From Alphaproteobacteria bacterium (GTDB taxonomy: Bacteria > Pseudomonadota > Alphaproteobacteria > MPNO01 > UBA830): a stretch of DNA of 64,000 nt. Position 1 is the stretch's first letter. Every line of letters starts with the position of its first letter. The DNA is taken from positions 2,048,001-2,112,000 of the forward strand of contig OZ219790.1 of assembly GCA_964291215.2 (NCBI GenBank), in the 5' to 3' direction. The position numbers were made by a program, and so were the translations under genes. Under the pieces are notes generated by a model. The model was not told the origin of the DNA. It was given only the letters and a program-made list of their open reading frames with translations, and did not search any database. This document shows, one piece after another, positions 35,272-60,826 of this stretch.

Positions 35272-35829
35272 ATGATGGCGACGGGAGAGACGTTACCGTT
35301 TTCGTGGCGGTCTGTCGAAGGTCTTCCGGATCTTGCGCGGTTGCGTGTGGTGCTGGAGGTGCTTCCGGACGAGGAGGTTGTGGCGGCGCTTGAGGCGGGT
35401 CGTGGCCGGGGTCGCAACGACTACCCGGTGCGGGCGATGTGGCGGGCTCTGATAGCGGGGATCGTGTTCCAGCACGCCTTGATGCAGTTGCTTCTGCGGG
35501 AGCTGGGCCGCAACCCGGCGCTTCTGGAGATTTGCGGGTTCGAGGCGCTTCCCTGGCAGGGCGCGCGGTGAGGCGTCCGGCGCCGTTGCGCTCGACGGTG
35601 CCGGGTTTCCTGGAACTTCTCGCACTTTCTAGGGCGCGTGGTGCGGCTTGATGACGAGCGCGGCCTTGTGTCGGGGATGATCGGGCGTCTGCGCGCCTCG
35701 CTGTTCGAGGAGTTGCCGGACTTCGGTCGCCATCTCGGGTATGACGGCAAGGCGGTGGCGAGCCACTCGACGGGCCGGATTGCCGGTGACAGGGGGAAGA
35801 CATCGGACCCCGATGCGGACTGGGGCAAG
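35272..35829 (+). pseudogene. Transposase, 5' half
   Basis: GRGRNDYPVRAMWRAL and YDGKAVASHS...DPDADWGK motifs. Confidence 0.8.
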
Positions 35830-35911
35830 TAAATAACTTCCCACGAAGCACCCACTTCGGCATCCCTGCCAAGCCCTTCCATTCGAGGCATGTATGACAT
35901 AAGTAGTTGCG

Positions 35912-35940
35912 TTGACAGGGTTATTTCTGTCCGCTAGATT
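35912..35940 (+). promoter_or_regulatory. sigma70-like promoter upstream of Int3
   Basis: TTGACA-17 bp-TAGATT. Confidence 0.65.
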
Positions 35941-36206
35941 GCGGCCATGGAACCCACAGTCGCCAAACGAGACAAGAGAGCGAGTGCTTACGATCCGTTT
36001 CGCACGCTCGCATTCCCGCTGCGCTTACGAGAAAATCGACCCGTTCCACCACAGGACGCCATCCGTCGAATCCGGTTCGGCGAGGCCGTGACGGAGGGAG
36101 CGATGGCGCAGACCGAATTCGGACCGGACCTGCCGGAACGCGGAGCCGGCATCGTCGTTTTCATCGTCGCCATGACCGAACGCCCTCGTCTCCGGAGCAG
36201 GACGCC

Positions 36207-37359
36207 ATGACGCAACGCCAGTACCGCACCCTCTCCAAGCGTATCGTCGACAGTCTTCCCGCCGATGGCAGGGACACCGTCTACTAGGACCGCGAGCTGC
36301 CCGGTTTCGGCCTGCGCGTCTACGCGAGCGGCAAGAAGGTCTTCGTCGTCCAGACGCGAGCCTTCGGCCGTTCCAGACGCGTGACCCTCGGCGAGCACGG
36401 CAACCCGCTCTCCGCCGACCCGCAAGGAGGCCGCCGAGGTCATCGTCCGCATCAAGACGGGGCAGCCCCCGCAGGACCCGGCCAACGATCCCACCGTCGC
36501 CGACCTCGCGGACCGCTACTTCCGCGAACATGTCGAGATGCACTGCAAGCCGGCCACCGTCTCCCGCTACCGGATCACGCTGCGCAAGCACATCGTGCCC
36601 GCCCTCGGCGGGCGTCTCGTCGCCGAGGTCGGGCACAAGGACATCCTGCGCTTCCACGACGCGCTGCATCACAGCCCCAGTGTCGCCAACCGGGCGGCCG
36701 ACATTCTGGTCAAGATGTTCAATCTGGCCGACGCGTGGGGCTGGTGTCCCTCGGGGCGCAACCCGGCCCGGAGCGTGCCCCGTTTCAGGGTCGAGAAGCA
36801 CGAGCGCTTCCTCACCCGCGAGGAACTCTCCCGGCGAGGCGCTCAGGGCCGCGCCCGCCGGGCGTCCCCCCATGCGGCGGCCGCCATCTATCTTCTCGTG
36901 CTGACCGGCTGCCGGCGCAACGAGATCCTCGGCCTGCGGTAGGACGACCTCAACTTCGACACCGGCGAGATACGGCTGCGCGACTCCAAGACCGGCGCGC
37001 GGATGGCGCCGATGCCGGCAAGGGTGGCCGCGGTGTTCGCCGGCCTGCCCCGCACGCCCGGCAATCCCTGGGTCTTCCCCGGCAGGAAGAAGGGCGCGCA
37101 CCTGGTCAACCTCAACGACTCCTGGGGCCGCATCCGCAAGGACGCGGGTCTCGAAGGCATCCGCCTGCACGACTTGCGCCACACCTTCGCTTCCAGGGTG
37201 CTCGCGCTGGGCGAGGGCCTGGCGATGATCGGCGACCTGCTCGGCCACCGCAAGGTGAGCGCCACCGCGCGTTACCTCGCGCGGGACTCGGTGCGGGTGT
37301 CCTCGGCCCGGATCGCCGCCGACATCGGCGCCAGGATCATGGCGCCGGACGGCCGCTAG
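36207..37359 (+). pseudogene. Tyrosine integrase with arm-binding domain (Int3), inactivated
   Basis: MTQRQYRTLSKRIVD..VY*DRELPGFGLRV, TGCRRNEI and HDLRH motifs. TAG at 36285 and 36940, plus frameshifts. Confidence 0.88.
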
Positions 37360-37482
37360 CGCGCCCGCGTCAAGGCGTACTCCGGAAGGACACTCCATCG
37401 CGAGATCTGGGACCAGGACGAGGCCATCGCCGCCGAAGCCTTCCGCATCCTCAGCCAGGGCGTCGCGCCCGACGGATACCAG

Positions 37483-38208
37483 ATGGCAGACGAACGCGAA
37501 CACCTCCTCTGGGGCTTCGTCAACATGCTCCACGCCCAGACGCAGCGCCTCGACCGCGCCGCCGACAGGCTCACCCCCGAACTCCAGAACCTCCAGCGCA
37601 CACAGGACGGCTCCGAGATCAGGTCCCTGGAACTGGAACTCACGACCGACCGCGCGCAGAACCTCGGCGACCGACGCGACGCCTTCGAGACCTTGCGCGA
37701 CGAGGCCGCCGAAGCCTACCGCGCAGACACCGGCGACACATGGCGGCCCCGGCGCGGCAGCCACGCCAGCCAGACCGGACATCTGACCTCCGCAGCCATC
37801 GACGCCCGCGACTTCGTCCGCGCCCGAAAGGACCGCAAGACACAGGCTCACCTGCCCCAGGGAACCCTCGTCGCCATCGCCGGCGGAAAGGACATCGCAA
37901 ATCCGGCGGCAGTCATCGAGCGCCTCGACAAGGTCCGCGCCAGGTATGCCGACCTCGTCCTCGTCCATGGCGGCGGCCCCGGCGTCGAGAAGATCGCCGC
38001 AAGCTGGGCCGAGCGCAACGGCGTCCACCAGGTCGTCTGCAAGCCCGACTGGGACCGCCACGGTCGCGCCGCCCCCTTCCGCCGCAACGACGAACTGCTC
38101 AACCTCCTGCCGAAGGGCGTCATCGCCTTCCCCGGCTCCGGCATCACCGACAACCTCGTCGACAAGGCCCGCAGCCTCGGCATCCCGGTCATGCGCTGCC
38201 CCGCCTGA
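37483..38208 (+). CDS. DUF2493 (SLOG/YspA-like) domain protein; N-terminus probably eroded
   Basis: LLWGFVN, VAIAGG, LVHGGG, WAERNGV and AAPFRRN motifs. Confidence 0.8.
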   Translation: MADEREHLLWGFVNMLHAQTQRLDRAADRLTPELQNLQRTQDGSEIRSLELELTTDRAQNLGDRRDAFETLRDEAAEAYRADTGDTWRPRRGSHASQTGHLTSAAIDARDFVRARKDRKTQAHLPQGTLVAIAGGKDIANPAAVIERLDKVRARYADLVLVHGGGPGVEKIAASWAERNGVHQVVCKPDWDRHGRAAPFRRNDELLNLLPKGVIAFPGSGITDNLVDKARSLGIPVMRCPA

Positions 38209-38581
38209 CACGCAGCACCCACGGGCCGCGTCGTCTCCGCTCCGGCGGCGGCGCGGTCCGTCTCCATAGGCGCACACCCGTCACGCGGCAGCTACGCCTC
38301 GCGCGCGCTTCGCGCCGCGTTCGTGCGGAGCCTGCCCCGGACTGCGATCCGGGGCTGCCGCATCACGCGCCGCTGCACCATGCTGCGCATGGGTGCATCG
38401 CGGGCTGCGCCGAGCCCGGCGCAGTGCCGCCGGCACTGCTAACCCGCCCAATGCCGGCGCTGCTGCCGGACCAGCACGACACCGTGCTTCGCACCGCTGC
38501 CCGCAGTCGTGCAGGCGCCGCCGTCGGCGCCTCCGATCGCAACGGCTATCGCAACCGTCACCGCACCCGCGCGGCCGACGC

Positions 38582-38830
38582 CGCGGTAACGGGTGCGCCA
38601 TCCCCGTCTGCGTCTGCGGTAATGTGTGAGCAGCACGCAATCACCCTGAACAGCCCCGCTTTCGTCGAGCACGCCTGTATCGCGGTAACATGTGCGCGGC
38701 GTCCTTCGGCTCCGCGGAACATGTGCGGCGGCGCCCGTGCCGCCGAGGTAACGCCGCCGGCTCCGGTGCGCCATGTGTGAAGACTGCCCTCCGCCGTTTG
38801 CACGCCGCGCCGCGTTCTGTTACCTCTGCG
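38582..38830. repeat. Phased GCGGTAAC(ATGTG) motif array
   Basis: GG(T)AA cores at 38585, 38618, 38684, 38716 and 38747, plus an inverted copy near 38820. Confidence 0.55.
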
Positions 38831-39199
38831 ACCGGACGACAACGCGGAACGCGCCCGAAGATCGCGGACCGGTCGTCTCGCTCAATCGCCGCGACGGCTC
38901 CCGTCCCTTGTGACGCCGGCGTTTCAGGCGATGGTGGTGTGCAGGGCAACCTCGCCCGATCTCGACTCCGTTCGGAGTTTTACCGTCACACCCGACGCAT
39001 CCTTGATGCAGGCGTTGCCATGGCTGCCCGTGTCCGCTGTTGGCTGCCCATGCCGCGGGCAGGCGCAGGTCTGTCCACCCCTGTCACGCCGGGAAAGGTC
39101 GCACCGAATTGGTAGCTCCCGTGTTTGCTGCAAACACATGCGCGATATCAGGAGGTTGGGCGCCGCCCCGCCGCACTCCGTCGGACATGGAGGCCCTAG

Positions 39200-41373
39200 C
39201 CCTGCCGTGTAGACATAAATCTACCAAGCAATGGTTTTGGCGATGCCCGCCGCGCCTACCATGTTGGCGGGATTTTGGGCACGGTCTGGCTGTTGTCGCC
39301 GGCTTGAGCAGCCAGCGCGGGTGCAGCGGCTCGGGTAGCAAAAGACCCACTGGACAACTCCGGCGCGAAGAGTCGCGGCATGGCACAGTCACAGATCCAG
39401 TCCACGCGCGGCGGAGCCCCGGATTGCCGCGATTCTGGCGCGGGAGCGGTTTGGCAGCCGCCACGCGCCGCCGTCTGTGCGAGGATTCAGGGACCGGCGG
39501 GGCCGTTTGCAGCTTGCCGGTTGTCTGAAGGCTTTGCGGGCTCTGGAGGCGCGCTCGGAAGTGATTGTCCTTCCACCGCCGCGGCGGTGCGGCCGTCGCT
39601 TCTGGGGACGCCGATAGCGCCTGCGGAGGGAGTTCCGGACCGGCTTTCGGAGGTTTGAGATTGCGGCGGTGGACACGCGCGCCGGCCGCCGGGTGTGGAA
39701 CACGCTGATGGCATACGAGCATCCGCGTGACGACGTTTGCCGGCTGCGCTATCTCGTTGGCTCCGAGCATGGTCTTTTGGGCGCCGCGGGGTTTTCTGCC
39801 GCTGCGGTTGTCGGCGCGCGACCGGGGGTGGGACGAAGCGCAGCGGCGGGACAATCTTGACCGGGTTCTGAGCCGTTTCCTGATCCGGCCGGGTGTTGCC
39901 AACCTTGCCAGCCATGTGCTGGGGCGTGTTCTGCGGCGGGGGACTTCGAGGCGCGTTACGGTTTTCAGCCGTGGCTTGTCGAGACGTTTCTCGAGGATCA
40001 GGGGGCGTGCCTGCGTGCGGCGAACTTCTTGGCGCGACGGCGGGGCGCGGCCGTCAGGATCGCGAGAACCGCGGCCGGTGAATTCATGTACGCGGCGGCG
40101 TCTGGGGGTTCCGGAGGCGGCGCTCGATCCGGGCGAGGGGCTTGGCGTGTGGGCGGTGAACGAGTTTGGAGGTGCGCAGTTGGGCGACAAGCGGTTGACG
40201 GCTGGTCAAGAGTGCGACGCTGGCGTATCCAGGGCGCGCGCAATGTCGAGAGCGACGAGGCTGCGGTGAACGGTTTCTACCGACTGATCGAGCATCCTGC
40301 GGACGTGACGGTCGAGAACATCCTCGCGCCGCGAGCGCACGGGCATGCGCGGACAGTCGACGGTGCTCGCGATGGCACCGATCTGAACTTCACGCGTCGT
40401 CCGTACACCGATGGCCTGCAGATCATCGGCAAGAACCAAACCGGCGCCCTGGGATTGCACCTGACGCTTGCGGTGAACGGGCTGCCGCGTGCTGCGCCTC
40501 GGTCACCGCACGTGCAAGACCCGGCGCTTGAGGACACGCTCCGGGCGACGCGCGCGCTGACGCGGGTGATCGCGGTGTGCGAGGCCGACTGTCTGTTCGA
40601 TGCCCAGCGCCGGGGGTCGAACTGCTGGTGCGGACGACCGCTGCCTGGCCGGCGAACGGAAGCTGTTCGCGACCGTCAGCCCCGCCGCGAGCCGGGTCGA
40701 GCGCCTCGGCGAGCGCAGGAAGTCGAGCAAGGTCAAGCCGCGCGCGCAAAGCGAGTTGCGCTTTTGCAAGGCCACCCTGCCGGCCACTGTCAAGAAGCCG
40801 GTCTCGGCCGTCCACCTCATCGAGCGCAACCCGCCCGGCAACGAGGACCCGATCCAGTGGTTCCTGCTCGCCACCGTCGACCACGCCGCAACCGCCGCCG
40901 AGATGATCGGATATTACCTCCAAAGGCGTCGAGGACTTCTTCAGAGTCCTCAAGTCCGGCTGCCGAACCGAGTTCCTCATGTTCCGCACCGCCTGCAACG
41001 CGCCATCACCATCAACGCCGTCATCGCCTGGCGCATCATGGTCATGACCCTGCGGCAGGTCCCCGAGTGCGAGCCCGAACTGCTGTTCACCGATCACGAA
41101 CTCAGCTTCCTGCGTCACTACGCCCTCAACAGCCGGCTCGATGCTCCCGACACGCTCGGGAACGCCGTCCGCCTCGTCGCCCATCTCGGCGGATACCGCG
41201 GGCGAACGCCCGACCCCGGAAACCAGATCATGTGGCAGGGCTACGGAACCCTCACGAAAGCCACCATCGGCCACAGAATCGGACACCAATTCGGCTTCGA
41301 GGACGGCAAGCGATACATGCTCGAACAGGTGCAAAAACATGTTGGGTAGCAAACTTGTGGCTACACGGCAGCC
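39200..41373 (+). mobile_element. IS4/DUF4338 element (related family), eroded
   Basis: CTAG TSD (39196, 41374). TIR CTGCCGTGTAG. LSRFLIRP, WAVNEFGGAQLGDKRL, DGTDLNF and LGGYRG motifs. Confidence 0.82.
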
Positions 41374-41604
41374 CTAGCCTGCCCCCGCTGGATATGGACT
41401 TGCTCCTGCGGAACTACCAGTCTGGTATCGCCCTCGCATACGCTGCACCATGACAGCTACCGGTCCGGTAGCTGTCCGAAGGCCGCGTTCGCCCGCGACT
41501 TCGGTCCGTCACACCGAACGACCGGGGGCGGCGCGGCTCCGGGGATCTGAAAGAACCGGAACCGGAACTCTTCCGAATCCATACGCAAGAACGGACAAAA
41601 CCGC

Positions 41605-41943: not shown

Positions 41944-41946
41944 GCA

Positions 41947-41961
41947 GGGGCGAGCAGTTAC
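41947..41961. repeat. Solo IS66 terminal repeat
   Basis: GGGGCGAGCAGTTAC versus GGGGTGAGCAGTTAC in the IS66 copies. Confidence 0.6.
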
Positions 41962-43508
41962 GCTTTGTTCCTCCCAGAGAAAGTTGTGGACGACGAGATT
42001 CCTGTGGGTGCAAGTCCGGTATGGCTATCGTAACCGTTTGATATATTGAGATTTTGCCTTTGTTTCCGGTTCCCGATTACCGGGGTTTGGTGACAATCGG
42101 TGGTTGGAGGGCCGGCATTTGTCACGGTTGCACGATGGCGGGGAGGTTGTGCGGGACCGCTCCGCCCCGCCAGAGGCGGTCAGGATGTTGTGTGCACGTC
42201 ACCCTCGGGAGCGGTCCCATGCCAGTGTCGCAGTCTGCGCAGTCTTCGTCCATCGATCTGTCGGGCTTGCCGGCTGGGGTTCTCGAGGCACTGACGGGGT
42301 TGGCGGCCGTGTGCCGTGCGGCGCTTGCCCCGGAGCCCTGTCCGGCGGCGTTCGAGGAGGTGGAGCGGCGAGTTCGGGAGGGCGTGAACGTGCTGGGCTG
42401 CGCGGTGCTGGGGTCGTGGATCAAGCGCCTCGACTACGGGCCGGGTCGAACAGGCCGGGCAGTAGCGGTTCCGTGTGGCGGCGACGCCGAAGACGATCAT
42501 GAGCACGCTCGGCCCGGTGACCTACAGGCGGGCGCGCTATCGCCACGGCGTGGGCGGCCCCTCGTTCGTGCCGGTGGACGAGAGCCTGGGGCTGGTGAAC
42601 GACTGGCTGATGCGCCCGGCCGCGCGGCTCGGGCTGATGATGATGGGCCATTGCACGGCGCGGGAAGCGGAGGCGTTCTTCTCGGAGATGGGTGCCATGG
42701 CGCCGTCCGCGAGCACGCTGCAACGGCTCGTCCGGACCATGCATGAGCGCTGGGAAGGCCTCGGACCGCAGGCGCTGGAGAGTATCCGCGACAGGGAGGA
42801 CATCCCGCCCGAGGCGGTCAGCGCCCCGGTCTCGCTGGACGGCGTGATGGTGGCGTTGCGCGCCGGCGAGGACGGGCGCGACGAGGCCTGCTGGCGCGAG
42901 GCCGCCTGCGGCACGGTCTCCTTCCACGGCCGGGAAGGCGAACGGCTCAAGACCCTCTATCTCGCCCGTATGCCCGAGAGCGGCAAGCGCACGCTGAAGG
43001 CCCAGCTCGCAAGCGAGGTCGCGCATATCCGCCGCGCGCGCCCCGATATCGCGGTCGTTGCGCTCGCCGACGGCGCCCCCGACAACTGGACCTTCCTGGA
43101 GAGCCTCTCGCCCGAGGCCGTCGACTTCTGGCACGCCTGCGAGCATCTCCGCACAGCCTCCGACCATGCCGTCGATCCCAACTGGTTCGAGACTTGCCGC
43201 CATACCCTGCGACACGACCTGCACGGCAGCGCCAAGGTGATCCGGGCGCTGCGCTACCTGCGCGACAAGGCAGGCGGCAACCACACCGCGCGCACCGCCA
43301 TCAAGCGCGAACTCGCCTTCTTCCGCAAGCACCGCAAGCGCATGCGATACCGCAACCTCAGCGACCGGGGCATCACCATCGGTTCCGGCGTTGTCGAGGC
43401 CGCAAACAAAGTAACCCTCCGAGGTAGGCCGCCTGTCGCATTTCTCCGGGATCGGGGAGGGTACGCGCTCGGAGGTGGGCGCGCGTCGCAGGTGCCCACC
43501 AAGGATAA

Positions 43509-43928
43509 GTGGACACTATGCGGATGTGGGACGCAGCCGAGCATGCAGGCTCCGGGGTCGACGGTCGGGGGCGCCGCCTTCGCCGTCGATGGAGCGAGGC
43601 GCGGAAGCGCCTGATCGTTGCGGAGAGCTACCAGCCCGGGGTTTCGGTTTCGGTCGTGGCGCGCCGACATGACGTGAACGCGAACCTGGTCTTCAAGTGG
43701 CGGCGCCAGTATCGGGAGCTGGCGCGCGTGGTGGGCGGCTTCGTCCCGGTGGTTGTCTCTTCGACGGAAGGGGCGGAGCCGGCGAAGCTGCTGCCGGCGC
43801 CGGAGGCCGAACCGTCTGCCTCCGGACGGATCGAGATTGCGCTGGCGGACGGCTCGCGCGTGACGGTCGACCGGGATGTGGACGCGGCGGCGCTGTCGCG
43901 GGTTCTCGGGGTTCTGGAACGGCGATGA
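43509..43928 (+). CDS. tnpA: IS66 TnpA (HTH)
   Basis: [13 protein letters not shown]...[17 protein letters not shown]. Confidence 0.88.
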
Positions 43929-44242
43929 TCCCGGTTCCGAGCGGGGCGCGGGTCTGGCTTGCGACGGGCGTGACGGACATGCGTCGCGGGATGAACACGC
44001 TGGCGCTGCAGGTCCAGCAAGGTCTCGGCCGCGATCCGCATGCGGGCGATCTCGTGAAGATCCTCTGGACTGACGGGATCGGGACCTCGCTCTACGCCAA
44101 GCGTCTGGAGCGTGGCCGGTTCCCCTGGCCGGCTGCTTCGGGCGAGGCGGTGTCGATCAGCGCGGCGCAGCTTGGCTATTTGCTGGAAGGGATCGACTGG
44201 CGGAACCCGGTCCGGACCTGGCGGCCGTCGCGGGCCGGCTGA
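43925..44242 (+). CDS. tnpB: IS66 TnpB accessory protein with an in-frame deletion
   Basis: TDMRRGMN and [10 protein letters not shown] motifs; lacks the conserved FxFRGRR segment. Confidence 0.85.
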
Positions 44243-44313
44243 CAGGCGGCAAATGGACTCATCCGACAGGATTGTCATGGCGGCGGGGCGGTTGTTATGA
44301 TTCGCTTCCGGGC

Positions 44314-45981: not shown

Positions 45982-46316
45982 CTCGCAACTGCCGCTTCGC
46001 GCTTCATCAACGGCATAACCGCCCCGGGTTCACAGCAACACACCCTGCGGCCCTTGCCGGATGCATACCAAACAAAACCCTCGTCGCACAGAGGATGAAG
46101 CGCTCCGGCATGCGATGGCGCATCGCCGGCGGCCAGGCCGTACTCACCGTACGCGCCCTCATCAAATCCGGACGCTTCGACCGCGCATGGGAAACTCTCA
46201 TGAGCGATGCCGATACCCCGGCCAACGACAACAGCTGTCCCGGCTACGCCCCCAAGCGCGCCGCATAAACCCGATCAGCCCAGCGATCCCGGCGTCGCCA
46301 TGCCAGACTCACGCCC

Positions 46317-46628
46317 ATTCCTGTCGCACCTGAATTTCCTAAGTCGGTCGTCGAACTGGAGCAACTCGCCAGTTGCGTTCGGCACTTTCTTCTTGGTCGA
46401 GGGATCCATCATTCCTGATTCCACACCAAGACCCCCCTCTTTGATACGGGTAATCAGGGCATCAACAATCATGATGACCCCGATCATTTTCAGGGGGCCT
46501 GGTTCGCATCTGCGAACCTGCGACATCAACTCCGAGAAGTTTGCCCTCGGATAGATGCGATCAATACGTCCGTCCTCTCCCGTCTCGGGGAAGTCCAGAA
46601 ATGCACCTACAGTCTGCTCTTGCTGCAC
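46317..46628 (-). pseudogene. HEPN-like protein split by an IS; continues at 41997-41962
   Basis: AAGGAG RBS and GTG start. Rejoined sequence reads KFRCDRN|LVVHNFLWEEQS, an RxxxxH motif. Confidence 0.65.
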
Positions 46629-46659: not shown

Positions 46660-47226
46660 TCAATTCAATGGGGTTTGTCCAGTTAATTGAACGATCATCT
46701 TCACTGCATCGGATAATGATCCTCCCCAATCGGTTAGCCAGTCGGGAATTGCCTCGGGCGAGACATGCAGCCATGCCGTATCGCTGCCAGACCTCCCACC
46801 GTGCTGTGATGAGATAATCCCCGCCGACCATTGTCGTAAAATCAACTCCTTCGGCAGTACCCAACAATGAGCGTCGAATGGACTAAGGCCCAAGCATACC
46901 GCAAATTCATAGTCTTGATCACGCAATTGCTGAAATCTATACGATCCACCCTTCCACAAGGTGCTCATCTTTATTTCAGCTCGCCGTCCCGCAATGATTC
47001 TGTCGGCGTGGGCGTCCGGAGACCGGGTCACGTCAAACCCTTTGGTAGTAAGAAACCCTGAGACCAATTTTTCTCCGATGGAGCCAACTTGTCTTGACGG
47101 CCTAGTCTTTATCCATGCAAAGGGGCTACCGACCCACGAAGCGTCATCGGCACTTTGATAGTCATTTTGGAGGGTCCTGGAATAGGAGGCCAGTATCTCC
47201 ACTTCCGGGTCTTGGATTCGAGCCAT
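46660..47226 (-). CDS. Putative PD-(D/E)xK restriction endonuclease
   Basis: GEKLV...DAHADR...AEIK..FQQLR. Overlaps the MTase 3' end and has visibly lower GC. Confidence 0.7.
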   Translation of the reverse strand: MARIQDPEVEILASYSRTLQNDYQSADDASWVGSPFAWIKTRPSRQVGSIGEKLVSGFLTTKGFDVTRSPDAHADRIIAGRRAEIKMSTLWKGGSYRFQQLRDQDYEFAVCLGLSPFDAHCWVLPKELILRQWSAGIISSQHGGRSGSDTAWLHVSPEAIPDWLTDWGGSLSDAVKMIVQLTGQTPLN

Positions 47227-52422: not shown

Positions 52423-53975
52423 GTATCTACTCACCCCTTGTTGGGTTCTGATTCATAGTGCTCGTTGATGATGTCTGCGGCTTTTCCGTCGAGGGCGATC
52501 TGGGTGGCGACGAGTGGGTTGTAGCCGAGTGCGGCCATGGAGGTGAGGTAGCTTGAGCTCCGGCACCATGCTTTTGCGTGGAGCGGAAGCATCCGGACAC
52601 CTTGACCTTTGCCATCCTGATCTTCTGTTCTCCGGCATTGTTGGTGAAGCTGACGTTGGGGTCGTCTGTGAAGCGCAGGTTTTCGTGTTTCACGAGACGT
52701 TCGTGCAGGTTGTGCGCGTCGGACTTGCGTCCACGTTTTCCTTTCGTCGGGATATCGGGCAGTTCCCTGGCGCCCTGATGGTGCGGTAGCGCTTGCGCAC
52801 GGCCCGGCGTCGTTCAGGGTTTTGGATGCGCTCTTGTTGACCTTGTGGCAGACCTCGCGGAGCAGGCTCTTCATCAGTCGCGCGGTAGCCTCGACGACAA
52901 AGGTCAGTTCGCGCAGCAGGTGGCTGCCGCACAGCTGGTGGCTACACTGGTCATAGCCCATGTACGAGGCCCAGGACGCCCTTGTAGCACGGGATGATGC
53001 CGATCTCTTGCCTCCCGGCCGCGCTTGCGGTGCGGGAACTTGCACGTCAGGGTCCCACGACATGGAGCCACTTGCTGTTGATCCGAAAGCCGGTCTCATC
53101 GACATTGGGCGTTGCAGGAGGTGCGCCACGGCGGCCTCCTCCCATGACGCATCGTGAAAGCATAGCCGAGGCCTCGGAGAGCTTGATGCCGGAGATCGCC
53201 TGCACGAACGCGACGGCACGGCGCAGGGACAGCATTTGGGCAACCAGCAGGTTGATGACGAGGGCCTGGATGCCGATGCCGTACTGCACGGTATGTTGTC
53301 GGGGAACCGGCCCTTGGTCCGGGCCTTGCACTTCGGGCATTCCTCGGCGTCGACGCGGCGCTCGACGACCTCGAACACGATGTCGTGCGGCGCTCCCGAT
53401 CGACGGGGTCGACGCCGCAGGCGTCGCAGGCCGCGACCGTTTCCTCGACGATGGTCTTGCGCAGGTTGTCGCCCATCTGCCGGTTCGGCTTCGGGCCCTT
53501 GCCGTTGCTTCCGGCACGCTCTCGTCCTTGTCCGTCTGTGACGGCGGCAGACCGGAGTTCCGGCTCGTTTTGCGCGTAGTCTTCTCCAGAAGGACGACGA
53601 TGAGGATGTCGAGCAGGATGACGAAGACGCGGATCACGGCCTCTTCCGCCACCTTGCCGGCAGCGCCGCGATCCGGGTCTTGGCCGCTTCGAACTCCTCG
53701 CGCGCCGCGTTGACCGTCGCCATCACCCGGCCTTGCGCTTCATCAGCGCGCCGCCTCCGAGATGCGTTTCCACATACAGATCATGCGGAGGCTGGAGCCC
53801 CGGAAGCAGCTGGCACAGCCCGCTCGTCGCCTTCGATCCAAAGTAGCCCACTGGCGGTCCCCGTCGTTCTCAATGACCACCACTAAGCGAATCGGCATGC
53901 AGTGTCAAATCTCCACGAAAACCCGTTCGTTACTCTACCCCGACATCAAGCCGGAACCAGGGGGTGAGCAGTTAC
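52423..53975 (-). mobile_element. IS66-family element, copy 3, eroded
   Basis: Same TIRs as copies 1 and 2. TSD GTCCAGCG (52415-52422, 53976-53983). Confidence 0.9.
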
Positions 53976-54674
53976 GTCCAGCGGGCATCGGGGTCGTCAA
54001 GGCGGGTCTGGAGCTTGGGCAGGGGCGGCCCCTTTTGCCGGGGTCGACCGCGTTTGTTCGGGTCGCGCGGCGGCGGGGCGCGAAGAGGTTGGCATCGAGC
54101 CTCAGCCTGCTGATGAGGGTTGCGCGCTGTCCGATGCGCCAGGCGAGTTCGTGGGTTCCGAAACTGCTGTCGGCGACGAAGACGATCGCGCGTTGCGGGA
54201 CCCAGCGAAGGATTTGAAGCATGCCCTGTCGCGCCCAGTCGGTGAGTTGCTTGTGACGCCGGCCTTGCCTGGCGGCGAAGCGTTCGGACGGGGCCAGGAT
54301 GGTCAGGAAGGGCAGGGCCCTGATGCCCGGCGACCAGGGCAGCGGGACAAGCAGCATGAAGCTGAGCCAGCGCAGCCCGCTGGTCTTGACGAAATGGCCA
54401 TGGCTGGAACGCACCGGGTCGCGATAGATGCCGCGCGCCTTGATACGCGCGCCCCAGCGGCGCTCAATGGTGTCATCGAGCCCGATGATGATCGGTCCCT
54501 GCCCGGCAAGCCGCGCCACCAGCACGAGCACGAGCCGGCGTGAAAGGTCACGCGGGTCCCAGCGGGCGCGATTGAGAACCTGATGGTAGGACGAGAATGT
54601 CTCGCACATCGCCCGCCCGGTCACCCGCAGGCAGGCCGACACGGTGTAAGCGGTGCGGCGGAGGCACCCGGCTT

Positions 54675-56294
54675 TCAGCTTGACGGGGGCTTGAAGCTCC
54701 AGGGCAGGAGTTCGTCGATGCGGCTGTTTGGATGGCCGGCGGCGATTCTCTCCAGCGTGATCTTGAGCCAGGCGTAGGGCTCGACGCCGTTCATCTTCGC
54801 CGTCTCGATGAGCGAGCCGATGCGGCCCCAGGAGCGCGCGCCCTCGTCGTGGCCGGCGAACAACGCATTTTTCGCGGTGAGCTTGATCGGCCGGATCCGA
54901 TTTTCGACGAAGTTGCTGTCCATCTCGACGCGCCCGTCGTGCAGGAAGACCAGCAACCCGTCCCACTGGTTGGCGATGTAGGTCAACTTCTCGCCGAGGC
55001 GGGACTTGGGCGAGACGCGCGAGCGCTGCTCGTCGAGCCACACGCCGAAGGCGTTCACCAGCGGCGCGGACTCGGTCCAGCGGACGAACTGGCGCGTCGC
55101 CGGCTCCTCACCCCGGATCCTGTCCTCGATCCTGTAGAGCTGCGCGATGCGCTCCAGTCCGGCCTTCGCGATCGGCGAGCGGCTGCTGTCGAACACCGTC
55201 TCAAGGCCGCGCCTGGCGTGTGCCCAACAGGCACAGAGCGTCAGCGCCCCGCCCGGGCGATCCGCCCGGCCGAGCCGGTTGTGGCCGGCATAGCCGTCGA
55301 CCTGCACCGATCCCTGGAAGCCCTCGAGGAGCTTCTCGCCATGCTTGCCGCTGCGCCCGGGCGCATACTCATAGACCACCCCCGGCGGGTCCGCCCCGGA
55401 CCAGGCCCGCTGGTCGCGCACCATGGTCCACAGATAGCCGGTTTTGGTCTTGCCCCGGCCCGGGTCGAGAACCCGAACCGTGGTTTCGTCCAGACCCAGG
55501 GTGCTCGACGTCTTCAGCGCCGTCTTCAGGCGCTCATACACGGGCCCGAGGTGGAACGACGCCTTGCCGACCCAGCCGGCCAGCGTCGAGCGGTCCAGTT
55601 GCAGCCCCGAGCGGGCATAGATCTGAGCCTGGCGGTACAGCGGAAGGTGGTCGGCATATTTGGAGATCAGGACATGGGCGATGGCGCCTTCGGTCGGCAG
55701 CCCGCCCTCGATCAGCCGCGCCGGCGCCGGCGCCTGGGTGACGCCTTCCTCGCACTTGCGGCAGGCGTATTTCGGGCGCACCGTGACGATCACCCGCAAC
55801 TGCGCCGGCACGATGTCGAGCCTCTCGGCGCGGTCCTCGCCGATCTTCACCATCTCCCCGCAGCCGCAGGGGCACAGCGTGCTCTCCGGCTCGATCACCT
55901 GCTCGATCCGTTCCAGGTGCTCCGGCAAATGGCCGAGATTGCGCTCCAAGCGGGGCTTCCTCGGTGCGCGCGGCGGCGACGGATTGTCGGCCGCGGCCTG
56001 TGCTTCCCCCTCCGCAGACGCGCCCTCCAGCTCCTCGAACGCCAGCTGGCGCTCGTCCGCCGACAGCTTCTCCGACCTCTTGCCATACACAAGGCGGACC
56101 AGTTCAAGGTTCAGATGCTCCAGACGGCGGATGCGCGCCGACAGCGCCTCATTCTCACCCGCGAGGCAGACCTTCTCTTCCGTCAGCGTCCTGTTCTCGG
56201 TGCGAAGCGTCTCCAGCGCCGCAAGCGCCTGCCTCGCAGCCGCCGCCTGTTCCGGCGTCAGCGTGTCGAGGTCCATCTCCGCAAGCGCTGCCAT
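54675..56294 (-). CDS. tnpC: IS66 transposase TnpC
   Basis: YGKRSEK, LDETTV, CWAHARR and DSNFVENRIR motifs. Confidence 0.95.
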   Translation of the reverse strand: MAALAEMDLDTLTPEQAAAARQALAALETLRTENRTLTEEKVCLAGENEALSARIRRLEHLNLELVRLVYGKRSEKLSADERQLAFEELEGASAEGEAQAAADNPSPPRAPRKPRLERNLGHLPEHLERIEQVIEPESTLCPCGCGEMVKIGEDRAERLDIVPAQLRVIVTVRPKYACRKCEEGVTQAPAPARLIEGGLPTEGAIAHVLISKYADHLPLYRQAQIYARSGLQLDRSTLAGWVGKASFHLGPVYERLKTALKTSSTLGLDETTVRVLDPGRGKTKTGYLWTMVRDQRAWSGADPPGVVYEYAPGRSGKHGEKLLEGFQGSVQVDGYAGHNRLGRADRPGGALTLCACWAHARRGLETVFDSSRSPIAKAGLERIAQLYRIEDRIRGEEPATRQFVRWTESAPLVNAFGVWLDEQRSRVSPKSRLGEKLTYIANQWDGLLVFLHDGRVEMDSNFVENRIRPIKLTAKNALFAGHDEGARSWGRIGSLIETAKMNGVEPYAWLKITLERIAAGHPNSRIDELLPWSFKPPSS

Positions 56295-56345
56295 GGCCCG
56301 CTCGATAGCACTGTGTCGGGGAGCCGGGGGCCCCGATCCGCTGAG

Positions 56346-56699
56346 TCATTCCGCCTCAGCCGGGGCCCGGACGGACAGCGCCCGAACACGACGCCAGTCC
56401 AGCCCGCAGAACAGCGCCTCGAACTGTGCATGGTTCAGCGTCATGACGCCGTCGCGGATCGCAGGCCACACGAAGCCCTGATCCTCCAGACGCTTGTAGA
56501 CCATCACCAACCCGGTCCCGTCATGGAAGACGAGCTTCAGCCTGTCGCTTCGTTTCGCCCTGAAGAGGAAGACCGTTCCCGTGAACGGGTCCTTGCGCAA
56601 CACGCTCTTCACATGCGCAACAAGGCCGTCGTGCTGCTTCCTGAAGTCCACGGGCTTCGTCGCAACGACGATCCGCACACGGTTCGATGGGAAGATCAT
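56346..56699 (-). CDS. tnpB: IS66 TnpB
   Basis: PVDFRK, VFLFRAKRSDRLKL and YKRLE motifs. Confidence 0.93.
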   Translation of the reverse strand: MIFPSNRVRIVVATKPVDFRKQHDGLVAHVKSVLRKDPFTGTVFLFRAKRSDRLKLVFHDGTGLVMVYKRLEDQGFVWPAIRDGVMTLNHAQFEALFCGLDWRRVRALSVRAPAEAE

Positions 56700-57094
56700 G
56701 ACGCCGCGTTCAGCGCAGAAACGATCTCCGCCAACCGTCCCGCCGGCACGGCCGCGTCCAGACGGACCGTAACCCTGTCCATAACGACTTCCAGACGCGC
56801 GCCGCTCGCCTCACCGACACCGCTACCCTCCGCCCGGACAACCAGCGGCGCAAACGCCACTTCCACCGCAGGCAAAACAAGCCGACCTTCCCGCGCCAGG
56901 CGACGCCAGCCCGTCAACTGGTTCGCATGGACGCCATGTCTGCGCGCAACCTCGCGAACCGTCGCACCCGGCTCCAGCGTCTCCGCCACAATCCGCGCCT
57001 TCAAATCATCCGGCCAGCGACGACGACCGCCTCCAACCGGAAGCACTTCTACGCTCCTGAGTGTCTCAACTGAGCCCAACATTGTGAAACTCAC
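56696..57094 (-). CDS. tnpA: IS66 TnpA
   Basis: RRRWPDDLKARIVAETL...VARRHGV. Confidence 0.9.
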   Translation of the reverse strand: MSFTMLGSVETLRSVEVLPVGGGRRRWPDDLKARIVAETLEPGATVREVARRHGVHANQLTGWRRLAREGRLVLPAVEVAFAPLVVRAEGSGVGEASGARLEVVMDRVTVRLDAAVPAGRLAEIVSALNAAS

Positions 57095-57441
57095 CTCCTG
57101 CTCAAATCACAGAAGGGGAATCCCAAATCACGCCTTCAACTGGAAGGGGGCTCAGCCGCCCCGCTTACGACACGGTTCTCTTGCCCGGCGCCAGCAACGC
57201 TCCCATGACCAGAACCACCACCAGCCGCCAGGTCGGGGATGAGAAGGCGCCTCGAAAGGGCTCCAGCCAGTCGATCAGGAACGGCGGAACCGGATCGCCA
57301 ATGGCGCTCGAAGGGTCGTCGAAATGTGTCATGACGACCTTCGAATCCAGAAGCACCCGGCATGCAAGGGCGCCCGCATGCGACCGGGTGAATCAGCATC
57401 GCTGCAGCGACAGAAGCCATCCAATCCGATATCACTGCTTC

Positions 57442-57729: not shown

Positions 57730-57756
57730 GGTAATTTTGTACAAAGTCGAGCTTAG

Positions 57757-57945
57757 AGATTTTATTTTCAAGTAGACAGTAGGCTTCGGCGGACGATCCG
57801 CTTCCATCTGGCCGTGCAGGTGCGTGAACGCGAGGGGGGCGAAGCCCAGCCGAGCGCGGGCGTCATCGACAGCCAGACATGGCGGCAGAGTCAATATATC
57901 TCTCTGAGCAGACTGAAAACCACGGAGGCAAGCGGGATTAGCAGT
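57757..57945 (+). pseudogene. IS5-family transposase fragment
   Basis: REREG..QPSAGVIDSQT...KTTE. Confidence 0.6.
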
Positions 57946-58176
57946 TATGCGGTAGTGGAGAATGGTCCGGATCCGGCGATCCACGGCGTGGTGCGGTGGC
58001 GGCGCTGCGACCTGGCGGCATGGCTCAGCGAGCAGTTCGGCGTGTCGCTGGGGGTGACGACGGTCGGACAGGAGTTGCGTCGCATGGGCTACGCCAAGCT
58101 CTCTGCGCGCCCGCGCCACCATGCCCGGGACGAAGCTGCGTTGGCGGCGTTCAAAAAAAGTTCCCCGACCGCCTGA

Positions 58177-59108
58177 GTGTCCGGCCCGGAATGAATTGAG
58201 TGATTTCAGTGTGTTGTGCTTCACTGGCAGTGTCCAGGCAATCAGCGAGGCACAAGATGTGGACTGAAATCACTCGACCGAAATATGACCGCACGGGGCT
58301 TCGTTACGCAAGCGATCTGAGCGATGGCGAATGGCGCGTGATCGAGCCCCATATGCCGGCGCCGAAGGCTCTGGGCCGGCCACGGACGACGGACCTGCGG
58401 GAGGTGGTAAACGCCATCCTGTATGTGCTGCGTTCGGGCTGCCCCTGGCGCTTGCTGCCGAACGACTTTCCGCCCCGTTCGACGGTGCAACGCTATTTCG
58501 CCGCGTGGCGGGACGAGGCGCTGTGGGCGCGCATCAATCACCGTCTCCTGATGGCGGCCCGCGAGGCCGAGGGGCGCGAGGCCAGCCCGTCGGCCGGCGT
58601 CATCGACAGCCAGTCGGTCAAGACCACGGAAAGCGGCGGTCCACGGGGCTTTGACGCGGGCAAGAAGATCAAGGGCCGCAAACGCCACATCCTCACCGAC
58701 ACCGGCGGCCTGCTGGTTGCCGCTCAGGTCCACGCCGCCAACATCCAGGACCGCGACGGCGCCCCCTCGGTGCTTGCCTCCATCCGCCACGCCTTCCCTT
58801 GGCTGCGTCACGTCTTCGCCGACGGCGCCTGTGCCGGCCCCAAGCTCGCGGCGGCTCTGGAACGGATCGGGCGGTGGACCCTGGAGATTGTCCAGCGCCC
58901 GGCCGGTGCGCGCGGGTTCGATGTCCTGCCGCGCCGCTGGGTGGTCGAGCACACATTGGCCTGGTTGAACCGCAATCGACGGCTCGCAAAGGACTTCGAG
59001 GCCAGCGTCACCACCGCCCAAGCCTGGCTCTTCATCGCCAGCGTTCAACTCATCACCAGAAGACTGGCAAGATATTGAAAATAAACACCTTAATTATGGG
59101 CCGGACTC
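58177..59108 (+). mobile_element. IS5-family element, intact
   Basis: TIR core GTCCGGCCC. TSD TGA (58174-58176, 59109-59111). Confidence 0.9.
58257..59078 (+). CDS. IS5-family transposase
   Basis: YASDLSD, GCPWRLLP, IDSQSVK, KGRKRH and RWVVE motifs. Confidence 0.93.
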   Translation: MWTEITRPKYDRTGLRYASDLSDGEWRVIEPHMPAPKALGRPRTTDLREVVNAILYVLRSGCPWRLLPNDFPPRSTVQRYFAAWRDEALWARINHRLLMAAREAEGREASPSAGVIDSQSVKTTESGGPRGFDAGKKIKGRKRHILTDTGGLLVAAQVHAANIQDRDGAPSVLASIRHAFPWLRHVFADGACAGPKLAAALERIGRWTLEIVQRPAGARGFDVLPRRWVVEHTLAWLNRNRRLAKDFEASVTTAQAWLFIASVQLITRRLARY

Positions 59109-59929
59109 TGAGGGAAATCCGCGCTGCACTTGGTGACGGCGTCGAGGTCGAAGTCTGGTGGCAGGACGAGGCGCGCGTCGGACAGAAGAACAAGATCACC
59201 CGGCGATGGGCGAAACGCGGCACCCGACCGTCAGCGCCCAAGGACCAGAGAACGATATCGGCCTACATCTTCGGCGCCATATGCCCGCATAAGGGCAAGG
59301 CCGCCGGCCTCGTCATGCCCCACGCCAACACGGAGGCACTCAACGCCCACCTCGCCGAGGTCGCCCTCACCGTCGAACCCGGAGCCCATGCCCTCGTCAT
59401 GCTCGACCGGGCCGGATGGCACATCTCCTCGACCCTCCAAGTGCCCGACAACATAACCCTCATGCCGCTCCCGCCCCGGTCCCCCGAGCTCAATCCTGTC
59501 GAGAATGTCTGGCAGTTCATGCGCGACAACTGGCTCTCGAACCGCGTCTTCCAGAACTACGACGACATACTCGATCACTGCTGCCAGGCCTGGAACAATC
59601 TCGTCTCACAACCAGAACGCATCGCCTCCATCGGAACTCGAAAATGGGCCCATGGGTTCTGAACCAGCGCCGTTGGTATGAGTTCCCTCGTGCACTGCGC
59701 GCAAGAAGGCACCCGGCAAGCATGGCCTTTTTTCACGGTCTGGCGGAACGCTTGCCGTCATGCCCTTCGGGCGATGGACCGTTTGTCGGCATGCGCGAGC
59801 CGGCAACGCCTCATTTCGGATCGATCCGGTCTCGGGCCGCTATCTGGAAACAGGCTTGATTTGCCGGAGGCCAGAAAAAACCAGTAAAATCAGCGATATA
59901 TAGAAGATTCAAAATATCCCGTTACATTG

Positions 59930-60826
59930 GGGGCAAGCACGAAACGGGCGGGGTGAACGCGAAGACCGGCGCGGTGTGGAAGAAGGTGAAGTCGTGGTTC
60001 GGCTACGGGCTGCACCTGATCGCCGACACGGACTACGAGGTTCCTGTAGCCTTCGAGGTGACGCGGGCGTCGGCGTCCGAGCCCGGGGCGCTGTCCGGGA
60101 TGGTGGAGGAGTTGTTCGCCGGGGCGCCGGAGGTGGCCGGTCGCTGCGCCACCTTCAGCGCCGACCGCTGTCTCGACAACGCCCGCCTGAAGGCGCTGCT
60201 GTGGGACAGGTGGCATATCCGCCCGCTGATCGACACGCGCCTGATGTGGCGGGTCGAGAAGAAGGAGCCGGGCCATGACCCGGCCGATCACGCGACCGCT
60301 GTTCCCCGGGCGCGCCGACGTCATCGTTCATGACGAACGCGGCCGGGTGTCCTGCGTGTGCCCGCAGACCGGCGAGGTCCGCACCATGGCCTTCCAGGGG
60401 TTCGAGGCCGGGCGCGGCGTCTGCGGCACGCTCGAATACCGCTGCCCCGCAGCCGCCTTCGGCTTCGAGTGCAAGGGACGCCGGGCCTGCCATCGGGCGG
60501 GTGGGGTGAAGTCCGGCGAATACGGCCGCATCCTGCGCGCCGACCTCGACAGCCATGACCGGCGCATCTTCACGCCCACGCCCTGGGGCAGCCCGTCATG
60601 GCGGCGCGGATACAACCGGCGCACCGCCATGGAGCAGATCAACGCCCGCCTCGACCGCAGGTTCAACTTCGAGACCCATTACATCCGCGGCCGCGCCAGG
60701 ATGAAGACACGCCTCGGCCTAGCGCTCGCGGTCATGATGGCCATGGCGCTTGCCCAGGCTCGCGCCGGACGCGCCGCACGCATGCGCTTCCTGGTCGGCA
60801 CCGTGCCCTGGCTCGACACCGGCTGA
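59930..60826 (+). pseudogene. Transposase, 3' half (partner of 35272-35829)
   Basis: GKHETGG..WFGYGLHLIAD, ADRCLD and YNRRTAMEQINARL motifs; one frameshift. Confidence 0.82.

Follow-up and report, generated by a model that had tools for sequence, protein, structure and literature searches.

Lambda-type secondary attachment sites and the variable coupling sequences of Tn916-type elements are examples of integration at partial core matches, after which passage may leave the core or overlap changed. Mycobacteriophage phiRv1 integrates into a repeated element, REP13E12, with a serine integrase, and the conjugative Tn4371-family ICEs use an 8-bp attB. The sections of Farrugia et al. (2015, PMC4482086) drawn on here describe dusA islands and prophages, whose tyrosine integrase enters the 5′ end of a protein-coding gene while the island supplies a new 5′ end; these elements have direct repeats that match imperfectly (attL, attR), and variable cargo. 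Multi-recombinase tyrosine elements comprise SEs, GInts, RITs and Tn554 in the parts of Idola et al. (2023, PMC10214605) that we used, where one SE is reported inserted in an IS3 gene.

Here we analyze a 24.1-kb insert and interpret it as a decayed site-specific integrative island that carries restriction-modification (R-M) genes. It lies in a stretch of alphaproteobacterial DNA of 64,000 nucleotides, the whole of which we call the window.

Results

A single IS copy is split by the insert

We observed that the transposase gene of an IS5/IS1182-type host IS is interrupted at 35829/59938 by an insert of 24,100 bp (35830-59929). The upstream frame runs to ...DPDADWGK (35829) and is closed by a TAA (35830-35832) that consists of the first three bases of the insert itself, and the downstream frame restarts with HETGGVNAKTG at 59938. 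The 8-bp sequence GGGGCAAG is present on both sides of the insert, and deletion of 35830-59937 in silico yields one open transposase frame, confirming the split gene described in the initial annotation. The features of the locus are as follows.

34984..34999, no strand: left half of the palindromic IS target; TCCG(T) at 34996-35000 is one duplication copy
35000..35829, + strand: left part of the host IS; transposase fragments 35273-35571 and 35638-35829; Pfam DUF772
35822..35829, + strand: attL core GGGGCAAG, W-G-K codons
35830..36206, + strand: left end of the island; terminus TAAATAAC, variable stretch of ~20 nt, conserved block, promoter-like site
36207..37359, + strand: intA pseudogene, P4-like tyrosine integrase; Phage_int_M and Phage_integrase fragments
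37398..37399, no strand: deletion junction; flanks compared with seven genomic copies and four related loci
37399..39201, + strand: first part of a YAcAr/DUF2493 module; ORF 37483-38208; continues at 41372-41940
39202..41371, + strand: IS4-type IS, later insertion, Tn5-like dimerisation domain; 8-bp duplication CCCTAGCC
41999..46327, + strand: ISKra4-family IS, about 42003-43410 plus 46069-46327, interrupted by an IS66-family IS
43411..46068: IS66-family IS within the ISKra4-family IS; duplication CAAACAAA; empty site at C1:183075-183130
46660..48100, - strand: type II R-M pair; REase 46660-47226, N6/N4 methyltransferase 47162-48100
48786..51780, + strand: restriction-methylase of type IIG (MmeI-like); a frameshift divides it into 48786-51092 and 50878-51780
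52424..53975, - strand: the genome's high-copy IS, later insertion; 9-bp duplication GTCCAGCGG; empty site C1:437690-437740
54646..57168, - strand: second IS66-family IS, later insertion; TnpB 56346-56699, transposase 54675-56294; 8-bp duplication GACACGGT
57949..59679, + strand: IS630-type remnant with a nested IS5-type IS at 58178-59107
59680..59929, + strand: right end of the island, ...CATTG; seven other genomic copies, same end in three other genomes
59930..59937, + strand: attR core GGGGCAAG
59938..61243, + strand: right part of the host IS, with an additional MITE-like repeat of ~204 bp at approximately 60934-61150
61244..61269, no strand: second TCCGT (61244-61248) and right half of the palindromic target

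Homology to an intact copy places the boundaries of the host IS at 35000 and 61242/61243. This corrects the terminal inverted repeats formerly placed at 34987 and 61271, where the outer repeat is the palindromic target of the IS. Removing the host IS together with one copy of its flanking TCCG(T) duplication leaves a chromosomal target whose perfect inverted arms, 16 nt each, are separated by 1 nt. Because the 4-5-bp duplication is shared and a perfect palindrome is rebuilt, both IS halves are one IS copy, and the possibility that they derive from different copies, raised earlier as a potential refutation, is answered.

The uninterrupted copy of the host IS in this genome (C1:189362-191320) reads GACTGGGGCAGGCAC once; its C1:189362-190219 portion is 90% identical to the left IS part of the window, with homology beginning at 35000. 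At the core position this copy has a single GGGGCAGG, which differs from the GGGGCAAG of the window. An uninterrupted form with the window core once, GGGGCAAG-CAC, was found in a contig from a public sequencing run, and the occupied junction in a different run (single short contigs each). The transposase of the window's host IS has a second break at 35569-35571, and that of the "intact" copy is likewise split.

The insert is degraded and rearranged

Profile searches recovered the tyrosine integrase, the DUF2493/YAcAr module and the R-M genes expected from the initial annotation. A promoter and an integrase had been proposed at the left end. The promoter-like site, TTGACA-17-TAGATT at 35912-35940, is conserved in relatives; the integrase is present but is a pseudogene, in which a three-frame reading against paralogues located two stop codons (36285-36287, 36940-36942) and, near 36385-36420, a frameshift, and tblastn found it only in pieces with stops. 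The second integrase gene, intB, is absent, deleted at 37398/37399: relatives have the intB ATG at the matching position, and the window instead enters the middle of a YAcAr-module gene. No HTH_17 frame, and hence no excisionase, was found beside the right end. A tyrosine recombinase with an intact catalytic region is thus lacking from the window copy and present in relatives, and tblastn showed all IntA and IntB copies of this genome to be broken. About 12 kb (51%) of the insert consists of ISs that entered later, every one of them flanked by a separate duplication. With intA broken, intB deleted, no Xis and half of the length contributed by later ISs, the element does not fit the active or functionally "hidden" one originally envisaged.

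The R-M part of the predicted cargo was supported by PADLOC (REase_II, 2.4e-54; MTase_II, 2.3e-140) and by an N6_N4_Mtase domain hit; the HEPN and RHH genes predicted with it had no match in Pfam, NCBIfam or PADLOC. A paralogue of the type IIG gene at C2:3229004-3232559 is a single frame of 999 aa, and DNA homologous to this gene lies near integrases in two related loci, L012 and L019. What had been called a motif array amounts to three or four loose GCGGTAAC-like repeats at 38578-38700, within the YAcAr/DUF2493 module. The ORFs that we scanned in the insert and in a complete relative (G001, below) yielded no relaxase, oriT or type IV secretion gene; several of these ORFs have no family, and those of the window copy come from an incomplete interior.

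The interior of the window copy is rearranged, with a junction at 37398/37399, and part of it could stem from recombination with other repeats rather than from the original cargo. On a rival reading, the IS halves or element ends came from separate insertions later joined by homologous recombination, and the 24.1 kb never moved as a whole. Repeats are extremely abundant in the genome, which has hundreds of IS copies, element ends without a partner are frequent, at least one illegitimate junction lies inside the insert, and at a hotspot such as this site an identical 8-bp repeat is by itself no proof of a single event. Nevertheless, we consider such a joining very unlikely, given that the IS flanks belong to one copy, that both element ends are correctly ordered and oriented with identical cores, and that order and orientation of the YAcAr module are matched in a second class-1 copy, C2:3166655, where it lies about 6 kb downstream of intA.

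Relatives carry two tandem integrases

The canonical element of this island family has two tandem integrases, IntA and IntB. In relatives, both have Pfam Phage_integrase and Arm-DNA-bind_3 domains, and their HxLRH...Y region, kept in both proteins, was aligned to XerC-like structures; the two are 49% identical. IntB lies downstream of IntA in 23 of the 40 loci with IntA, across a gap of about 40 nt that contains no ORF. The genes that follow the pair are cargo, such as a methylase in L012 and ankyrin proteins in L008.

Element ends recur beside intA

The terminus TAAATAAC occurs at a fixed distance from intA in the window and at five other sites in this genome, and at the same distance in 8/49 related loci from other MAGs. 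The ends are therefore conserved near integrase homologues, which removes the second refutation put forward initially, and with the core paired around the insert they bear out the proposal of an integrative element that has an 8-bp core at its borders. Scanning the genome for the end patterns returned nine left-type matches, six of them true element ends, and nine right-type matches, of which eight are true. The flanks of the ends vary among the genomic copies; in the window's family, conserved ends are thus linked to the integrase at differing targets. The only natural junction seen of right end, GGGGTAAG and left end is a chromosomal one, at C2:532430-532751. Paired ends were found in this genome for the window copy only, the others being scattered, as they are in G003; in G002 the left end of L013 may pair with a right end that lies 81 kb away. 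Since the scattered ends are unpaired, element size and content are known from one complete relative only.

PIN/vapC genes are the likely usual target

In 22/38 related loci the left end adjoins a PIN gene, confirmed by Pfam, and provides the start codons of that gene. Five more loci (L014, L027, L032, L034 and L038) share the junction codons but received no PIN call. The window copy shares the intA homology and the terminal sequences of the family but not this junction: it lies within the transposase gene of an IS, and the codons at its end are GGA-AGT or GAG-AGT, not GTG/ATG-AGT.

The complete relative, in G001, is an element of 11,989 bp at L088:1475-13463, placed between the body of a vapC gene and that gene's own 5′ fragment plus vapB. 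Its order is attL, intA, intB, cargo, an excisionase-like ORF with an HTH_17 or "excise" domain, and attR. The attL core is GTGTCGAG and the attR core GTGTCGAC, the two differing at the last base. A sister genome, G010, has the empty site, with GTGTCGAC present once and 95-97% identity on either side. Judging from these sequences, the last-base difference and the attR version in the empty site are what recombination between attP and attB would be expected to leave. The common target, and usual landing site, of the family is likely to be the 5′ end of PIN/vapC genes, not an IS.

These cores also bear on whether the insert could be a transposon moved by a DDE transposase, for example of IS66 type, with GGGGCAAG as its 8-bp target-site duplication. 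The repeat around the insert is exact, and the IS66-family elements within it do make 8-bp duplications. We found this hard to credit: the insert ends are not inverted repeats and are unlike any IS ends inside it, they always travel with intA, and the 8 bp are alike at unrelated targets (GGGGCAAG or GTGTCSAG) and not random, while the G001 cores differ in the manner of attP x attB with the attR version in the empty site. Neither terminal inverted repeats nor a cognate transposase at the ends nor arbitrary-sequence duplications were found in the window element.

The same IS site has been occupied repeatedly

In this genome the IS is represented by an intact copy, the split copy of the window, a left half (C1:891195) and a right half (C1:783392). 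Except for the intact copy, with its GGGGCAGG, each of these has an element end at precisely this position. A further MAG also has a right end at this IS site. The left ends of the window element and of C1:891195 are 98% identical, compared with only 89.5% for their IS flanks, which points to repeated hits. An integrase lineage evolved to use a multicopy IS as its regular, harmless site could account for this pattern. However, elements located in PIN genes or elsewhere match the left 1.15 kb of the window element at 96-98% identity, and GGGGCAAG-type junctions also occur at several non-IS flanks (C2:3166655; L006, L030/L031, L044 and L084) and upstream of a LysR-like start (C1:1976535 and C2:1461726). 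The IS is low-copy in this genome and not a plentiful target, and the two solitary halves could be one insertion split by inversion, leaving perhaps only two events. A dedicated IS-homing island thus appears unlikely. Since GGGGCAAG-core elements also occupy non-IS sites, use of the IS looks opportunistic, and relaxed, core-directed targeting seems to fit the sequences better than a dedicated strategy. From the initial proposal of low-specificity or IS-targeting integration, we retain the reoccupation of the same IS site and give little weight to the dedicated strategy.

A tree built from the left 1.15 kb has the two core types intermingled, and core type varies together with the element's first ~20 nt. 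Core switching, as proposed below, leaves both observations unexplained so far.

Discussion

We estimate a probability of roughly 80% that the insert is a tandem-integrase island that recombined site-specifically into the IS via GGGGCAAG and has since lost its own recombination genes. Entry into the transposase gene was likely by recombination across this 8-bp core. IntA and IntB would act jointly, as XerC/XerD do, and their att site would be asymmetric, of the form ...CATTG / core / TAAATAAC... The usual attB would be the codons for (Y)-L-L/I-D-T-N with which a PIN gene begins, and which the element end may replace with GTG/ATG-AGT-TAT-TTA or ATG-TAT-CTA. The window lineage appears to have gained an altered core (as the reverse complement, CTTGCCCC in place of CTSGACAC), probably by passage through a secondary site, and this core could have redirected it to sites that match, for example the W-G-K codons of the host IS. 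Presumably, the R-M genes arrived as cargo.

More generally, the evidence leans slightly towards a picture in which alphaproteobacterial two-integrase islands home to the catalytic-aspartate codons at the start of PIN/VapC genes, re-supplying the toxin start and severing the toxin from its antitoxin and promoter, and in which a change of a few bases in the 8-bp core redirects them to other repeats, such as an IS transposase. If this is true, the most abundant toxin-antitoxin family is a many-copy landing pad for these islands.

The mechanism that we propose for the GGGGCAAG variant is that of lambda-type and Tn916-type systems, which have one integrase where the present family has two. Like phiRv1 and Tn4371-family ICEs, these islands integrate into a repeated mobile sequence or a very short, frequent attB. 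They differ from phiRv1 in using tyrosine rather than serine integrases; Tn4371-family elements are conjugative, and no relaxase or type IV secretion gene was seen among the scanned ORFs of the window insert and G001.

As far as the parts of Idola et al. (2023) used here describe them, SEs, GInts, RITs and Tn554 resemble the family in having more than one tyrosine recombinase gene at the left end beside a promoter region, a target preference and a short (6-bp) spacer. In contrast, the present family has only two adjacent paralogues, with P4-type arm-binding domains, and none of the accessory genes (tfp/srap, ginC/ginD, tnpC or a third recombinase) was found between or after intA-intB in the loci read. 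Terminal inverted repeats, described there for SE and RIT, are absent from the ends of the present elements, and the excisionase-like gene at the far end and the clean empty site follow the classical Int/Xis pattern instead.

The dusA islands, likened here by their description in the sections of Farrugia et al. (2015) that we drew on, share the 5′-end insertion with a replacement 5′ end, the flanking direct repeats and the variable cargo. They have one integrase rather than a tandem pair, and they target a housekeeping gene present in single copy, where the consensus spans 21 bp, compared with the starts of many PIN toxin genes and a 7-8-bp core here. Whereas those islands reside in dusA, the window copy resides in an IS.

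The insert and its host IS

On contig C1 of the genome (G000), the window covers 2048001-2112000. The transposase frame of the host IS (IS5/IS1182-type) runs to ...DPDADWGK at 35829, where a TAA stop (35830-35832) follows, and picks up again with HETGGVNAKTG at 59938. The core, GGGGCAAG, flanks the insert at 35822-35829 and 59930-59937. In-silico deletion of 35830-59937 gave a single continuous frame, which bears out the split transposase described in the initial annotation. An uninterrupted copy of the IS on the same contig (C1:189362-191320) matches the left part at 90% identity and the right part at 94%, and contains GACTGGGGCAGGCAC once. Homology to this copy puts the IS ends at 35000 and 61242/61243; the terminal inverted repeats proposed at 34987 and 61271 are not IS ends. 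TCCG(T) lies on each side of the IS; when the IS is taken out along with one of the repeat copies, what remains is a perfect palindrome of 16-nt arms around one base. The two halves therefore represent one IS insertion and not parts of different IS copies. Within the right part, at about 60934-61150, lies a ~204-bp MITE-like repeat that is absent from the intact copy, with further copies at C1:883135, C1:883370, C2:2401354 and C2:2411292-2411709.

An empty host IS carrying the core was found in part: the sole unoccupied copy in this genome (G000, contigs C1 and C2) has GGGGCAGG, but one public sequencing run holds the uninterrupted GGGGCAAG-CAC form of the site on a single short contig. Another run holds an occupied IS junction, again on a single short contig. 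Public runs gave partial matches only (best share 0.38, all short contigs), and no joints across the insert were reported.

Element ends recur beside a tandem integrase pair

We observed that the two termini of the insert (TAAATAAC... at its start, ...CATTG at its end) are found elsewhere in G000 and always break at exactly these positions, with flanking DNA that differs from copy to copy. A pattern scan returned nine left-type matches, six of them true ends and three due to chance, and nine right-type matches (eight true, one chance).

True element ends in G000 (pattern scan)
Left ends: window; C1:891195; C1:174315; C2:2482872; C2:3166655; C2:532675 (within an end-to-end junction)
Right ends: window; C1:398629; C1:537821; C1:783392; C1:1976535; C2:1447928; C2:1461726; C2:2469876

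The 8 bp outside these ends are of two similar types, GGGGCAAG and GTGTC(C/G)AG, the latter with variants GTGACCAA, GTGTCCAC and GGATCCAC. The same integrase gene, intA, always lies ~375 bp past the left end, and the promoter-like site proposed there (35912-35940) holds up as a consensus match and is conserved in relatives. With 362 aa of open frame from the intA copy at C2:3166655 as query, 55 loci were matched in other genomes, nearly all alphaproteobacterial MAGs. TAAATAAC stands as far from intA as in the window in 8 of the 49 loci long enough to examine, each time with GGGGCAAG or GT(G/A)TC(G/C)AG immediately outside. Conserved ends next to integrase homologues, a point raised in the initial annotation, are thus found both in G000 and elsewhere. 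Distant members (67-80% IntA identity) have the related terminus TAG(A/G)TA(C/A/T)....

A second integrase, IntB, follows IntA in 23 of the 40 loci with an IntA match, starting 35-45 nt past it in 20 and displaced by insertions in three; loci without IntB mostly have a truncated IntA or short flanks. The two proteins share 49% identity, and each has Arm-DNA-bind_3 and Phage_integrase domains and the HxLRH...Y region.

At C2:532430-532751 (L003), GGGGTAAG joins a right end head to tail to a left end that is cut after 73 bp, the order predicted earlier for a circle junction, but here in the chromosome; this is either a relic left by a tandem insertion or a junction resembling attP. Consistent left/right pairs were not found within plausible distances elsewhere in G000 or in a second genome (G003), and the right-end pattern gave only chance matches in the 6-kb flanks of related loci. 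In G002 the exact right-end pattern had no match, and a BLAST-type search then recovered diverged right ends. The only arm-type repeat common to both ends, in the window and G001 elements, was the 10-mer GCCGGCA[TA]CG (window 36145 and 59799; G001 element, L088, 1789 and 13333), possibly an integrase site, though too slight a basis for conclusions. Just past TAAATAAC (window 35838-35860, same place in related loci), ~20 nt are hypervariable and resemble a small hairpin with compensating changes (CGAAG...CTTCG vs CCGAG...CTCGG); they co-vary with core type, though conservation across the remainder of the left end is 96-98%.

PIN toxin genes appear to be the usual target

On the opposite strand, the left junction of GTGTCSAG-type elements reads GTG/ATG-AGT-TAT-TTA / CTS-GAC-AC..., that is M-S-Y-L / L-D-T-N, and that of distant members ATG-TAT-CTA / ATC-GAC-AC.... 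Of 38 loci tested, 22 had an ORF starting at this junction that is a full-length Pfam PIN domain (PF01850 or PF13470), with the alignment beginning at profile position 1-4, and five further loci (L014, L027, L032, L034, L038) have the same junction codons and no PIN call. Past their first residues these PIN proteins are mutually unrelated, and are therefore targets rather than parts of the element. These data suggest that the family normally targets the start of PIN toxin genes.

A complete element could be delimited in G001 (L088:1475-13463, 11,989 bp).

Order of the G001 element
vapC body
attL (core GTGTCGAG)
intA, intB
ankyrin and repeat-protein cargo
HTH_17 / 'excise'-domain ORF
attR (core GTGTCGAC)
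beyond attR: original vapC first codons (GTG-TTT-CTG-GTC-GAC-AC), AbrB-type vapB

In the sister genome G010, vapBC is uninterrupted and GTGTCGAC appears a single time, with 95-97% identity on either side of the site. An attP x attB exchange within GTGTCGA would leave attL and attR differing by one base, as they do here; a duplication made by a transposase would not. We also note that L088 1073-1489 is a full-length vapC with an element-supplied start, and that the antitoxin gene vapB and the native promoter (13464-13700) are left 12 kb from vapC.

A changed core best explains the use of an IS

In the window, the opposite strand of the core reads CTTGCCCC in place of CTSGACAC, and the element end supplies GGA-AGT or GAG-AGT in place of GTG/ATG-AGT; restoring a PIN gene would therefore be beyond the window element. 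Over the left 1.15 kb it nevertheless shares 96-98% identity with elements that occupy PIN genes (L026) or an IS630 transposase (C2:2482872). We considered whether the two core types are separate lineages, but they are intermixed in a tree of this segment, and the core change is therefore recent. Passage through a secondary site, a process known from lambda and Tn916-type elements, may have given rise to it; this origin leaves unexplained the co-variation of the first ~20 nt of the element with core type. With 249 occurrences of GGGGCAAG in G000, the target must be determined by more than the core.

Junctions with the GGGGCAAG-type core
IS site: window; C1:891195 (left); C1:783392 (right); another MAG (L086)
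Non-IS: C2:3166655; L006; L030/L031; L044; L084
About 20-30 bp upstream of a LysR-like start: C1:1976535; C2:1461726

No convincing ORF crosses the GGGGCAAG-core junctions outside the IS. Between the window and C1:891195, element left ends are 98% identical and IS flanks 89.5%, which speaks for separate hits on one IS site. The solitary halves on C1, one left and one right, may still derive from a single insertion divided by an inversion. The initial annotation had proposed an IS-targeting integrative element. An island with restriction-modification (R-M) cargo does lie in an IS site used more than once, but the copy is dead and the family normally sits in PIN toxin genes. For the use of an IS, the changed core is a better explanation than a dedicated IS-homing strategy.

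Cargo and decay of the window copy

PADLOC and Pfam identified R-M cargo, as had been claimed.

R-M genes in the insert
46660-47226: type II restriction endonuclease
47162-48100: N6/N4 methyltransferase, its partner
48786-51092 / 50878-51780: type IIG MmeI-like enzyme, frameshifted

The C2 paralogue of the type IIG enzyme is one 999-aa frame. Homologous DNA lies a few kb from the integrases in L012 and L019, and in L012 a methylase directly follows intB; R-M cargo is therefore recurrent in the family. The claimed HEPN and RHH genes, and further defence families, were not found by Pfam, NCBIfam or PADLOC, and the 'motif array' (38578-38700) proved to be a loose group of repeats resembling GCGGTAAC.

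The integrase reported at the left end is present as intA (36207-37359), but it carries a frameshift and two in-frame stops, each at a W codon (VY*DREL, LGLR*DDL). In relatives the intB ATG lies 40 nt downstream of intA; exactly there, at 37398/37399, the window switches into the middle of a YAcAr/DUF2493-module gene. The seven other G000 copies of this module extend upstream past the breakpoint, which is a deletion or illegitimate junction and not an element end. In L078 (G004:C1:2301383) of another MAG, a right end with core GGGGCCAG lies inside a YAcAr-module gene, 13 nt from the position of the window's 37399 junction. No excisionase-like frame was found beside the window's right end, and by tblastn all IntA and IntB copies in G000 are fragmented or contain stops. 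Two intA copies (C1:890008-890030 and C1:175503-175520) are cut after ...LRDSKTG, where an integrase paralogue (MPKRSTLRI...) starts, which suggests elements nested within each other's integrase genes.

That five IS entered later is proven by the duplication each made at its target and by paralogous DNA in which the sites are empty.

Later IS insertions in the insert
39202-41371: IS4-type IS
43411-46068: IS66, nested in an ISKra4-type IS
52424-53975: high-copy IS
54646-57168: second IS66
58178-59107: IS5-type IS, nested in an IS630 remnant

Together with the IS housing them, they make up about 12.3 of the 24.1 kb. The window copy is a fossil, with no present function except possibly that of the type II R-M pair, and it illustrates how fast IS bury an island in G000, a genome of two contigs with 64% G+C that is packed with IS. 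The ~1.55-kb high-copy IS also occupies 1320-2830 and 10869-12416, makes 9-bp duplications and has hundreds of copies across both contigs (87-99% identity); neither Pfam nor NCBIfam gave a family for its ORFs. Immediately to the left of the host IS, at 32571-34830, lies a second, more distant tandem integrase pair: Int1 (32571-33758, 395 aa) looks intact, Int2 (33755-about 34830) is frameshifted with the IS target palindrome just downstream, and the left side is cut by an ISKra4-type fragment (about 32400-32500). A HipA_C fragment (24545-24946), an AAA_21 (AbiEii-like) ATPase (62159-63412) and an IS110-type fragment (63409-63849) were also observed. The entire window is a mobile-element graveyard.

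Significance and comparison with known systems

The window copy is of modest interest, and the family-level pattern is the more valuable result. Integrative islands are usually mapped via tRNA genes and a few conserved genes. Such mapping would miss the IntA-IntB family, because it lands in brief runs of conserved codons within genes that are multicopy and poorly annotated: PIN toxins and, in the window, an IS. If PIN targeting is true, such islands can be located in alphaproteobacterial genomes by a simple rule, and the family offers a natural example of an attP core change redirecting an integrase pair. It would also raise the question of the fate of a vapBC module whose toxin, with an element-borne start, lies at least 12 kb from its antitoxin. 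No report of vapC/PIN integration or of this integrase pair was found in the full-text literature, a scope with subscription journals mostly outside it.

For the mode of integration, the nearest described parallel is the dusA islands, which substitute island sequence for the 5' end of their target (PMC4482086). For multiple tyrosine recombinases, the nearest parallels are SEs, GInts, RITs and Tn554 (PMC10214605). The IntA-IntB family lacks their accessory genes and inverted repeats. With its excisionase-like gene and clean empty site, it behaves like a classical Int/Xis island with a duplicated integrase.
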